The position numbers and the translations under genes were made by a program. This document shows positions 30,824 through 55,516 of a DNA stretch of 64,000 nucleotides, piece by piece (position 1 is the stretch's first letter; every line of letters begins with the position of its first letter). The notes below the pieces were generated by a model. It did no database searches. It was not told the DNA's origin and saw only the letters and a list, made by a program, of their open reading frames with translations. Source of the stretch: Eledone cirrhosa (Eukaryota); contig OZ024762.1 of assembly GCA_964016885.1 (NCBI GenBank), forward strand, positions 23,622,001 to 23,686,000, read 5' to 3'.

Positions 30824-32458
30824 GTGATACCAAAAGTCAAGCAACACGCCCGACTTAGCCTATGGATCAACACCCAGGAAGTAATCTCATGGTTCAGCAA
30901 TATGGAGGATAAACGAGACACTAAATTCATACAGTTCGACATAGAGAGCTACTATGCTTCAATCACCTTACCGCTACTTACTGCCGCCTTGGACTTCGCC
31001 GAAGCACTTGTGCCCATCACCGACCAGGAAAGAAAAATCATCCTCCACGCCAGGAAGACAGTCTTACTCTTTGACGACTCTAAATGGATAAAAAGAGCTC
31101 TCGACTCACCCTTCGACGTCAGCATGGGCGCCACGGATTCGGCGGAGGTCACAGATCTTATAGGATTATTCCTAATAGCCAAACTCACTGATATGTTTCC
31201 TGCATTCGGTGGTGGATTGTACCGTGGTGATGGGCTCCTTACCCTTAAAGGGTACAACCCCAGTAGTACAGATCGGGTCCGGAAACAATTAATCAGATTC
31301 TTCCGCGACTGGGGATTTAAAATAACCCTACAAACGTCCCTGACCCGAGTAAACTTCCTGGACGTGACCCTCGACCTCGAAAACGACCTGTACTACCCAT
31401 ACAGGAAACCTAATGACAATCTGCACTACATCCACCGCCGATCAAACCATCCTAGGAACATCACAAACAACCTGGTCAAAAACATCTCCCTCCGCATATC
31501 CCGTTTGTCAGCTAATGAGCGGATATTCGATGAACATGCGCCTTATTACAACCAGGCCCTCAAGCGGAGTGGTTTCCGGGAGGATATATCCTACTGTCCA
31601 GCTCCCATTAGCGGAACCAGCAGGAGACTCCGCCGCTCACGCAATGTAACATGGTTCAATCCTCCCCACAACGCAGAGGTGACAACTCCCATCGGGAAAC
31701 TATTCTTTAGGCTCATTGAAAAACACTTCCCATTACAACACCGCTACCACAACATAATTAACAAAAATACCATCAAACTCTCTTACAGCACTACACCAAA
31801 CTTCGCACAAAACATCGTCTCCTCTAACAACAAAAAACTCAACCCCGATGGCAGAAATAACCTAAATAGCAGTGGAGAACCGACCAGGAGGTGTAACTGT
31901 CCGGATAGATCCATTTGCCCACTCGACAATAGATGCAGAGACCGTAATGTGATCTACCAGTGCAACGTGAGGACGGATACCTCCAACAAAGCCTATATAG
32001 GACTTACCGCATGTGACTTCAAGACCCGGCTATACCAACATAGACATACCTTCCGAAACCCGGCCCGGCGTCACGCCACTACACTTTCGGGCCACATATG
32101 GGACCTCAAGGACAACAACATCACCTATGATCTCACTTGGAGATTACTGTCCAGAGCCAATTCTTACACGGGAGGACGCCGTCCGTGCAATTTATGCTCG
32201 GAGGAAACTTTACAAATGCTGTTTTCGACGGACCAACTCCTAAACAAGAAAGATGAACTGGTTACTGCATGTAAACATAGATTGCGTAGGACTTACCTCG
32301 CCCTCAAACCCTATAATGACCCGGGGGGGTATACTAGGGCTATAACACCCCACTTGCCGATTTTGCAATGGGTAACCCCTGCTTGCCAAGGGAGACGTAA
32401 GATCTTCTTTTTATTCTTTTATCGCTTCCTTTATTTCCTTCCCCCCTTCCCTCCTTAG
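30824..32458 (+). pseudogene. PLE reverse transcriptase + GIY-YIG endonuclease, N-terminally truncated, catalytic YxDD altered to YRGD
   Basis: FDIESYYASI, VSMGA, LYRGDGL, VNFLDVTL, WFNPP, KLSYS, CNC-x5-CPL-x3-C, VIYQC...AYIGLT...FKTRLYQH, CNLC...LLNK...CKH. Confidence 0.9.
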
Positions 32459-33440
32459 TCCTTCTACCCCAGCTCTTCTCCTTTGTCGGCGTCTTTTCTC
32501 GCCCACCCGAGGCTGCCCTTTGGCCCCTTGTAGCCTTAGTACCCCACCCCCTTCCCTAGTCTAGGATAGATCTGGCGGACTCCGCCTTTTATAGCAGTTG
32601 GTTTAGACCCCGGATACTTGCCCCCTTTTTCCGACCGCTCCCACTATTCTCCGTGCCTTCTATATTTCTTAGTGGCACTTATGCCTTATTTTCTCGTTTC
32701 AGTATTTCTTTCTTCGCTTTTCTTTTGGGCGGGGTGGATTCTGATTTTATTTTTCCGTATTCTACCTTTACTTCGTACGAACTTTCATGTAGCTTGTTTT
32801 AGATCTTTTAGAGTTAGCATTAGTATATATTTTTTCGGGACTCAGAATTTTTATCTCGTACTAGTTCACTTTGCTGCACTGGGTGGCTGCTGGCATTGTG
32901 CCCGGGATAGAAACCTTTATTATTTATTTCGTGGTAGTCTCTTTAGTATTTTGGCCCCATTTGTTGACCCGTCACCGTATCATTTACGTACTTATACCTC
33001 TTAAAAGGGTCCTTGCCTATACCGTCCCACCTAGTTCTTTTACTTATTTCGTTATTTCTTTATTTCTTTCTTTACTTCTTTCTTTCTTTATTTATTTATT
33101 TAGTCTAGCCTAACAGTAGCTAGAGACCTAGGTCGTAGAACTTGCTTTACTTTTTTCTTTACACTTATCCGCTTTTCTTCACTCTCACTATTTTTTCTTT
33201 CATATATATGTTTACCCCCATTGTTCTACCTACCGTTCCGACTTCCTCCCTTTCCCCCTCCCCAGTATCTTCTTTGACCTCATGCCCAGCTGTAGCTGGC
33301 ACTACCAACGCTTGATTGGGTCTACTCCACCCCCTCCCCTCTTTCTCCTACTGGCAGGTTTAGCCACCATCTCCCCTACTAATTTGCAATCACTGAATTA
33401 CTACTGATTTTTGACAATCACTTTGACCATATATGGAATT

Positions 33441-33555
33441 ACCCCTTGAGAAGATCGGCTATTTAAATACCAGGATAAATTTTCATTTAGTCCAGAATTA
33501 GCCGTCGAAACGGCTTGAGCTCAGCCGTCTCTTATAAGAAAAAAGAAGAAGGGGT
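33441..33555 (+). ncRNA. pLTR hammerhead (U3:A8 core) interrupted by a 21-nt insertion at the cleavage site
   Basis: ACCCC-TTGAGAA-...GGCTA...TAGCC..-GAAA-CGGCT tgagctc AGCCG-TC-[21 nt]-GGGGT. Confidence 0.75.
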
Positions 33556-33568
33556 CTTACTGGTTCCT

Positions 33569-34681
<1,113 letters not shown>

Positions 34682-36842: not shown

Positions 36843-39479
<2,637 letters not shown>

Positions 39480-41076: not shown

Positions 41077-41626
41077 CATATAATGGCAAGTCCTCTTCTT
41101 CCTTAGTGTCATCCTAATAAGATATCGTGGTTTTGTTGAACTCTATATATGTGTGTGTCTGTGTGTGTCTGTATGCATAGGTGTGAACATATATATATAT
41201 ATACAACACACATATACACACACACACAGACACACACACACATATATATATACACACATATATATATATATATATATAATGGCGATATATTTTGTGAATA
41301 TACAAGATATACAAACGAGAGAAAAGACCAGTCAACACAATGTAAAAGTGGAGAATGCTAACATACATGCACTTCTACATACACACACATGCGTACACAT
41401 ATACACTCATACACACCAATACATATACACACACATACACACATACATATACACACATATACACACACACATACACAGAGACTCATTGGATCCATGAATT
41501 ATATAGATATTATATATAGATATTATATATCGGCTCATTCCTGGATTCATACATTCTATTAACGGACTCAATATAAAACCAATAGTGAAAAAAGAATTGT
41601 ATATCGATTCCTAGAGGTATATATAT

Positions 41627-41804
41627 ATAGGAAAAGAGTCTGCACCCCAACGGCTGAGCTCCGGCGTTTCGACAGCTTGATCCGAAACGGCCAGAGCTCA
41701 GCCGTCGGGGTCCTGACTCTTTTGCTATTACCCACTCTACTAACCTAAGTATCGAGTACTCTGGTGCGTTATGGTCCACCTGGTTTCTTACCACACCCTC
41801 TTTG

Positions 41805-41806
<2 letters not shown>
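41627..41806. mobile_element. Diverged family B hairpin derivative
   Basis: Inverted short arm plus sense arm GAAACGGCCAGAGCTCAGCCGTCGGGGTC and tail. Confidence 0.8.
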
Positions 41807-41858
<52 letters not shown>

Positions 41859-54736: not shown

Positions 54737-55290
54737 ATATATATTGTTATACTTTGGGAGGGTCAAGTTGCCAATAAGAAACACACGCACCAGTTGCTTT
54801 CACTCCAATTTATTATAAATTAAATTATAAAATTTAAAAAAAATTATAAATTTCCGGTTGGTTGGAGGGTTCCACAACCGGACGGTTGTTCATATATTGT
54901 CAAAGATCTTTCGTCACACATTCTGTGACCTCATCAGTGACCGGGATTCTTTTCTTTGTTTTATGCCTCTCCTTTGTTCTGTCCTACGCCATCTTGTTTT
55001 TGTGTGTTCTGTTATATTGAACACACACGAAAACAAGATGACGTAGGACAGAACAAAGGAGAGGCACAAAAACAAAGAAAAGAATTCCCGGTCACTGATA
55101 AGGTCACAATGTGTGACGAAAGAACTTTGACAATATATGAACAACCGTCCGGTTGTGGAACCAACCAACCAACCGGAAATTTATAAAAAAAATTTTTAAT
55201 TTTATAATTTAATTTATAATAAATTGGAGTGAAAGCAACTGGTGCGTGTGTTTCTTATTGGCAACATGACCCTCCCAAAGTATAACAATA
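54737..55290. mobile_element. Inverted pair of family A pLTR-like units
   Basis: 54737-55011 (minus) and 55020-55290 (plus), homologous to 6045-6330. Confidence 0.8.
54899..54941 (-). ncRNA. Canonical minimal type I hammerhead with palindromic GATC loop III
   Basis: Minus strand: GTCA-CTGATGA-g-GTCACA gaatg TGTGAC-GAAA-GATC-TT-TGAC. Confidence 0.8.
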
Positions 55291-55297
55291 TATATAT

Positions 55298-55435
55298 ATA
55301 GGAACGAGTAGGACCCCGACGGCTGAGCTCAAGCCGTTTCGACGGCTCGTTCCTATTACCCACTCTACTACCCTAAGTATTGAGTACTTTGGTGCGTTAT
55401 GGTCCACCTGGTTCCTTACCACATTTCCTTCGTTA
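55298..55435. mobile_element. Family B short inverted derivative
   Basis: Inverted short arm, then sense tail ending CCTTCGTT. Confidence 0.8.
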
Positions 55436-55516
55436 TATATATATCATTTTATCAAACTCTTGAAACTCTGACTTTACCACATAGCATGTATTTCATTTTC
55501 TTATAGCATTTTAAGA

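Follow-up and report, generated by a model that had tools for sequence, protein, structure and literature searches.

Non-templated A-rich inserts at the predicted hammerhead cleavage site of a Penelope-like element resemble copied 3′ tails of cut, linear element RNA

Introduction

The closest described systems are Penelope-like elements (PLEs) that carry a hammerhead ribozyme. A U3-A8 covariant core is known from PLE hammerheads (PMC4209133), and an internal promoter is known for Penelope of D. virilis (PMC2377424). The function of the hammerhead in endonuclease-bearing (EN+) PLEs was termed unclear, and inserts at the cut site are not described in the consulted parts of that report (PMC8557442). 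In vivo cutting by PLE hammerheads and its role in transposition were both stated to be open (PMC8557442, PMC4209133), and in vitro the hammerhead cleavage of an anole PLE was dispensable (PMC11167929).

An open-access literature search found no mention of tails at the hammerhead sites of PLEs; an earlier mention elsewhere is possible. Related events are U6/LINE-1 chimeras made by RtcB ligation, L1 twin priming and the end-to-end jumps of retroplasmids. These belong to different elements that have no hammerhead; their likeness to the present case lies in two-primer inverted insertions and in an RNA-end junction that becomes fixed in DNA. Here we describe a PLE in a 64,000-nt stretch of DNA (the window) with an insert at its predicted scissile bond, and the copies of its family that bear on the origin of this insert.

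Results

The element and its insert

The host element appears to be a Hydra-clade PLE, judged from motifs read by eye and set against the published description of the clade. The unit, taken from a tandem array elsewhere, is 3542 nt long from cut to cut and carries a 717-aa ORF from +191. As in the Hydra clade, this is a single ORF with the reverse transcriptase (RT) followed by a C-terminal GIY-YIG EN. By-eye reading of the translation found DKT, the CxCX5C linker, CxxC and CxH, no CCHH, and RWR instead of RWK. The ORF had no match in Pfam or, by sequence, in the PDB; its Atlas neighbours scored 0.96–0.99, some of them with GIY-YIG and RVT_1. The (TA)n target, the hammerhead and the inverted arm, all three of them traits of the clade, were present.

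The window copy runs in the order inverted arm, truncated ORF, 3′ UTR, ribozyme, 20 further bases and (TA)n (Table 1), and the inverted arm joins the ORF through a 5-nt microhomology. Copies have two fixed ends in (TA)n, at +20 or at approximately +100, and therefore any cDNA that reaches the ribozyme must cross the scissile bond.

Table 1. Features of the element copy in the window (positions within the window)
Feature	Position	Strand	Remark
Inverted arm, element +103 to +3	30721..30821	-	starts in (TA)n, stops at cleavage site
5′-truncated element body	30817..33529	+	unit positions 829-3542; 95.8% identity to tandem-array unit
Truncated RT and GIY-YIG-type ORF	30818..32458	+	CxC-X5-C linker, CxxC and CxH by eye
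Hammerhead stem I, 5′ strand	33441..33445	+	
Hammerhead core, U3-A8 variant	33446..33452	+	position 7 varies among copies (G, T, C, A)
Stem II with 37-nt loop	33453..33506	+	from fold
GAAA, stem III, GTC	33507..33529	+	predicted cleavage after 33529
21-nt insert, putative RNA 3′ tail	33530..33550	+	non-templated; pyrimidine-first, then A-rich with G
Element +1 to +20 (3′ strand of stem I, short primed end)	33551..33570	+	runs into (TA)n

The initial annotation had reported a 21-nt A-rich insertion exactly at the hammerhead bond with no loss of flanking bases, and this was confirmed: the 21 extra nt lie between GTC (33527-33529) and GGGGT (33551-33555), and both flanks are complete. Rereading of the window likewise upheld its statement that GTC-GGGGT is uninterrupted in all four copies at 7505, 17862, 41705 and 61547. 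By exact-sequence search, the window insert occurs once in the genome and the exact intact junction 26,964 times. A propagated subfamily as the source of the insert was ruled out by this single occurrence. The element is covered by contigs of four other runs (word share 0.38-0.51), whereas the window insert lies outside their coverage.

Other copies and fragments were seen along with this element. Short two-armed hairpins that represent three or more subfamilies of this element family lie at 7301-7534, 19834-20064, 41618-41834 and 55288-55444 of the window. A second PLE endonuclease fragment (18582-19043) has 35% identity to that of the element itself, a non-LTR RT fragment with RVT_1 (36960-38525) has a downstream ORF that by eye resembles a restriction-like endonuclease, and another retroelement-like fragment lies at 21319-21906. 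Elsewhere (L089/L090/L107; G000:C1:91.47-91.50 Mb), a tandem array holds an inverted arm and five junctions spaced at 3542-3543 nt, all of them intact. The 717-aa ORF is open in the translated unit of this array, which fits rolling-circle copying or long read-through.

The predicted hammerhead

The element has a type I, U3-A8 hammerhead at its 3′ end, and the insert interrupts the bond at which this ribozyme is predicted to cut. No part is missing from the window copy, which has both strands of stem I (ACCCC/GGGGT), the core (TTGAGAA), stems II and III and the GAAA, and the minimum free energy fold of an intact junction is this three-way junction (-22.8 kcal/mol). The core boxes, three stems and NUH triplet of a type I hammerhead were all found, with U3-A8, GAAA and GUC. 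A scan of the window against Rfam at gathering scores gave no match; the core is a variant and loop II has 37 nt. In three tailed loci (L039, L046 and L100) the core is C3-A8, which is expected to pair poorly. The C3-A8 subfamily (these three and L103), at approximately a quarter of the contig depth in the four other runs, nonetheless has tails. Further hammerhead-like motifs, belonging to several families, were seen in the window at 6137, 6560, 28741, 28842, 29898, 41885, 42188, 49601 and 54937, the first two with a spacing of 423 nt.

Inserts recur at the predicted bond

Differing inserts abut the predicted cut at 19 loci. In an unbiased search for insertions of at least 3 nt across a 19-nt interval there were 161 matches, and the 100 that were listed were classed by eye as local duplications or rearrangements (81), G-run expansions (4) and non-duplicated inserts (15). 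Among these 15, 12 were exactly at the bond, two ended there but lacked 5′ bases, and one was elsewhere; for 12 inserts out of 15 to fall at a single bond among 20, the corrected binomial p is 2e-12. The enrichment across family copies that the initial annotation had proposed as a check was thus found, since 14 of the 15 non-duplicated inserts among the 100 of 161 matches listed end at the bond. The lone case off the bond was an A/T-rich insert with a 6-nt duplication in loop III (L103).

A bond-specific search found 27 arms, which comprised 16 inserts of at least 5 nt (at 15 loci), nine single-base inserts, one two-base insert and one duplication. The 19 loci are these 15, a G-starting case, a case from another subfamily (L189) and the two trimmed cases; the tally covers inserts of up to approximately 30 nt at an intact bond and, for G-starting ones, the 100 matches listed. 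The 17 inserts exactly at the bond were all distinct, and the two further ones lost 5′ bases and kept all four G. Assembly error is unlikely to lie behind the inserts because the 19 differing inserts share a coherent architecture. The subfamily search gave 17 matches, with one new tail (L189), two known ones and a remainder of mostly duplications. In one subfamily there were nine tailed compared to 2,036 intact long arms (0.44%); the tailed route is minor, at approximately 0.4% of long copies.

In a second U3-A8 hammerhead family of the same genome, at most one of 65 insertions was non-templated near the predicted cut, and there was no clear enrichment. This family (L217-L228) is an abundant short repeat in which several duplications restart near the predicted cut site. 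In many of the duplications among the 100 of 161 matches listed, the second copy begins at approximately -45 to -30 and resembles an imprecise jump; such jumps would run from the RNA start to the 3′ ribozyme region.

Opposite arms stop at the cut

At 14 of the 19 tailed loci there is an opposite arm primed in (TA)n. It stops within +1 to +8 in 12 of them (microhomology allowed) and at +13 in one. In L047 the opposite arm crosses the cut, and an identical 5-nt insert is found in both arms; intact crossing by the opposite arm occurred at 0 of the 14 tailed loci. In contrast, 0 of 40 intact long control elements stopped within +8 and 37 of 40 crossed intact (p = 3e-10). The controls came from 64 elements, which correspond to the first 100 of the 2,036 intact long arms listed. 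In 28 of these elements each arm was long and intact; these pairs, assigned mostly on coordinates, supply 28 of the 37 crossing controls. The other 36 were singles, of which nine had a crossing arm, three had a stop at +12, +57 or +64, and 24 were without such an arm. The nine single-base inserts behaved as intact copies, with an opposite arm that crossed in eight and was missing in one.

Genome-wide, 535 arm stops were found at +1 compared to 86 at -4 under a matched filter, and crossing arms numbered 14,687. Among the 100 of the 535 stops listed, 27 were explicable by the palindrome CCCCGGGG and nine by G-run slippage, and the excess at +1 after this discount is roughly fourfold. Of 22 sampled loci, 15 have their two arms joined head to head at +1 or +2. 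Run-off additions look short because 12 of these 15 joins hold 0-5 nt.

The stop of the opposite arm at the cut in 12 of 14 loci points to a linear template, and a closed template crossed by all cDNA does not agree with these second arms. The intact long copies, with 37 of 40 crossing, would fit either a circle or an uncut multimer. The initial annotation had proposed that a cleaved RNA was tailed and then re-ligated or circularised, in which case the insert would lie covalently within the template. L047, with the same insert in both arms, favours this; exact 3542-3543-nt tandem arrays occur, and circular RNA has been put forward for PLEs (PMC4209133) and demonstrated for metazoan retrozymes (PMC7229834). 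However, a circle has no end at +1, where the opposite arms stop, and a tandem repeat of the insert was absent among the 27 arms of the bond-specific search. Joining of a 3′-OH tail to a 5′-OH requires extra end chemistry, which also counts against it. An origin at the RNA level at the cut site was retained from this proposal; ligation or a circle, which fits 1 of 14 informative loci, is decidedly unlikely for the tailed copies.

The RNA end at +1 might also be real and not made by the hammerhead, arising from an alternative start, from a protein nuclease cut or from a strong RT stop. For an anole PLE, cutting by the hammerhead required protein and read ends were absent from the cut site (PMC11167929), and in the present genome three tailed copies have the C3-A8 core and the second family is without the signal. 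Nevertheless, such a source would have to provide a 5′ end at +1 as well as a 3′ end at -1, exactly at the bond predicted for the hammerhead, and core position 7 varies as expected for a working core. We consider it highly improbable.

Composition of the inserts

The 17 exact inserts (233 nt) contain A 64%, T 25%, G 8% and C 3% on the RNA strand. A exceeds T on this strand in 14 of the 17 (p = 0.006), and three are T-rich throughout. Pyrimidines account for 25 of 51 nt in the first three positions compared to 40 of 182 later (p = 3e-4). The properties looked for in host RNA tails, namely non-templated sequence, this 5′-to-3′ order, an A/U-rich RNA strand and varied 3′ ends, were all found. From their sequence, the inserts resemble the U-first, mixed A-rich tails made by terminal nucleotidyltransferases and are unlike locally templated repair. 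Two long A runs, in L032 and L209, both open with AC.

Repair scars at the DNA level would arise if already integrated copies tended to break at this spot and were rejoined, with or without a template, and the initial annotation had offered locally templated repair as an alternative, citing a TCTTA match in the flank and a palindrome. The first 5 nt of the window insert do match the flank and a short palindrome is present, but they carry no signal of local templating. The best local match was 6 nt compared to a shuffle mean of 6.3, and the 17 inserts together scored 93 against the flanking 100 nt compared to 95.5 for shuffles (p = 0.80). Matches to the whole 3542-nt unit did not exceed the shuffle level either. 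The A/T-rich insert with a duplication in loop III of L103 also speaks for such scars. Against this explanation, the A bias tracks the element RNA strand, later repair does not account for the stop of the other arm, which lies up to approximately 2.7 kb away, at this very bond, and the single-base inserts act as intact copies. Repair of integrated DNA is scarcely credible as the source of the inserts.

Putative tails on 3′-truncated RNAs

When A-rich sequence preceding +1 was sought, 23 matches came up, six of which were known loci. In five of the 23, +1 adjoins element sequence that breaks off at 246, 836, 925, 956 and 2034, with approximately 0, 15, 2, 54 and 3 extra nt, respectively. The 15-nt tail is T-rich, and the 54-nt tail is T-rich first and then has A with G. 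The presence of similar tails on 3′-truncated RNAs indicates that tailing is not confined to the -1 end. In four of these five joins the copy runs back to +1 to +9 and then stops, and therefore the acceptor RNA often starts at the cut. L199 and L205 return to +1 and halt without a second round, which is a further point against a tailed circle. L203, a tailed 3′-truncated copy, is also without unit positions 160-337, by deletion or splice. Among the remaining matches, two had A runs only between two arms and ten were ordinary joins or ambiguous. In L209, more than 20 A lie between two arms and the acceptor sequence is absent; this A run could also have been added by RT or a repair polymerase.

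The same case bears on the possibility that, after the ribozyme had cut the RNA, RT or a repair polymerase extended the end of the cDNA with the extra letters and the cDNA then jumped to an untailed 3′ end. The RT of R2 adds non-templated nucleotides at run-off and jumps between templates (PMC3774820), and this possibility explains the position of the inserts and the arm stops equally well. It requires, however, T-rich additions to cDNA of up to 54 nt with the order of composition reversed, whereas head-to-head joins mostly hold the few nt noted above, and the insert of L047 is identical in both arms. Of the suggestion in the initial annotation that RT added nucleotides while jumping between cleaved ends, the jump between cut ends is kept, and RT as the source of the nucleotides is rather unlikely.

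Other RNA templates and an internal promoter

After three arms from selected loci were dropped, 16 of 18 incidental arms ended by -45 and none ended between -46 and -112; in 25 of 31 arm pairs the span does not exceed 94 nt. The entire ribozyme was present in 16 of 19 tailed arms compared to 2 of 18 incidental arms (p = 1e-5). Two motifs lie inside loop II, where short arms stop, at 33460-33467 and 33483-33492, which we take to be TATA-like and initiator-like, respectively. They suggest a candidate transcription start near -45, with a promoter apparently nested in the ribozyme. Since these motifs lie at the -45 boundary, most copies probably come from RNA starting there; approximately 80-90% of copies are short hairpins that end by -45 and likely have this origin. 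Such RNA probably cannot form a whole ribozyme at its 5′ end.

Long intact copies likely derive from RNA that is continuous across the bond, as an uncut multimer or a precisely ligated circle. When one arm is long the other is usually long as well (the 28 pairs and most of the nine singles), and therefore length is a property of the template. LTR-like strand transfer through the redundancy of -44 to -1 was rejected as a source of long intact arms because the arm lengths covary.

Discussion

The feature is real and recurrent, occurs in a known kind of element, and provides new evidence on an open mechanistic question. The insert was probably copied from the 3′ tail of a linear element RNA with ribozyme cuts at both ends. 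In the mechanism that we propose, a tandem read-through transcript would self-cleave to give a unit RNA with its start at +1 and its end at -1, and the cyclic-phosphate end would be opened and sometimes trimmed. Host terminal transferases would then tail the opened end with U or C first and then A with some G. The element protein would nick both strands of (TA)n, and two cDNAs would be primed at +20 and +100. Both cDNAs would run off at +1, and one of them would jump end to end onto the tail and copy on through the ribozyme into the ORF; the other would be left at +1, and the two cDNAs would be joined bluntly or by microhomology. The cleavage, the tailing enzymes and the RT jump are all steps that we infer.

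A broader and more tentative possibility, about which we are somewhat doubtful, is that PLEs use three templates: RNA starting inside the ribozyme, which would give abortive hairpins; continuous or circular RNA, which would give intact long copies; and a cut linear monomer, which the telomerase-related RT would complete only by jumping onto a host decay tail. If this is true, host surveillance tails rescue transposition and turn into heritable DNA, and the genome is a readable archive of germline RNA tails.

The signals at this bond are paired, with tails on its 5′ side and cDNA stops on its 3′ side, linked per locus. They offer a cheap assay of in vivo cleavage that uses only the genome and is applicable to any PLE family.

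The element shares with the Hydra-clade PLEs (Craig et al. 2021, PMC8557442) the C-terminal GIY-YIG-type EN, RW[K/R], DKT, CxC-X5-C, CxxC and CxH without CCHH, the hammerhead, the (TA)n target, the inverted 5′ arm and the two ends; its unit is 3.5 kb, compared to 'generally <3 kb' in the clade. With the PLE hammerheads of Cervera and de la Pena (2014, PMC4209133) it has in common a type I ribozyme in the pLTR, the U3-A8 covariant core, and successive cut sites that define the unit. The tailed class looks linear and jump-crossed, and in this it differs from the circular template proposed there and from retrozymes (PMC7229834).

As in R2 (Eickbush et al. 2013, PMC3774820), junctions would record a ribozyme cut, non-templated bases and template jumping by RT. 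The R2 ribozyme is HDV-like, however, and in R2 the extra bases are added by RT where the element meets target DNA. The present inserts are instead internal to the element, placed where its own 3′ end adjoins its own 5′ end, and have the look of RNA tails. Tailing by TENT4 and TUT4/7 (PMC7988573) likewise yields uridylated and mixed A-rich tails, among others on LINE-1 RNA; uridylation blocks 3′-end priming in that system, whereas priming is internal here and the tail would serve as a landing site.

The anole Poseidon PLE (Frangieh et al. 2024, PMC11167929) also has two internal RT starts downstream of the cut and an AT-rich target of which both strands are nicked and extended, in vitro in that study. 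Its RT starts are 30-40 nt apart, compared to approximately 80 nt here. The tailed inserts are indirect evidence for in vivo cutting by a PLE hammerhead, an activity that was dispensable in vitro in that system, and the present family differs in that a minority of its genomic copies apparently came from cut, tailed, linear RNA.
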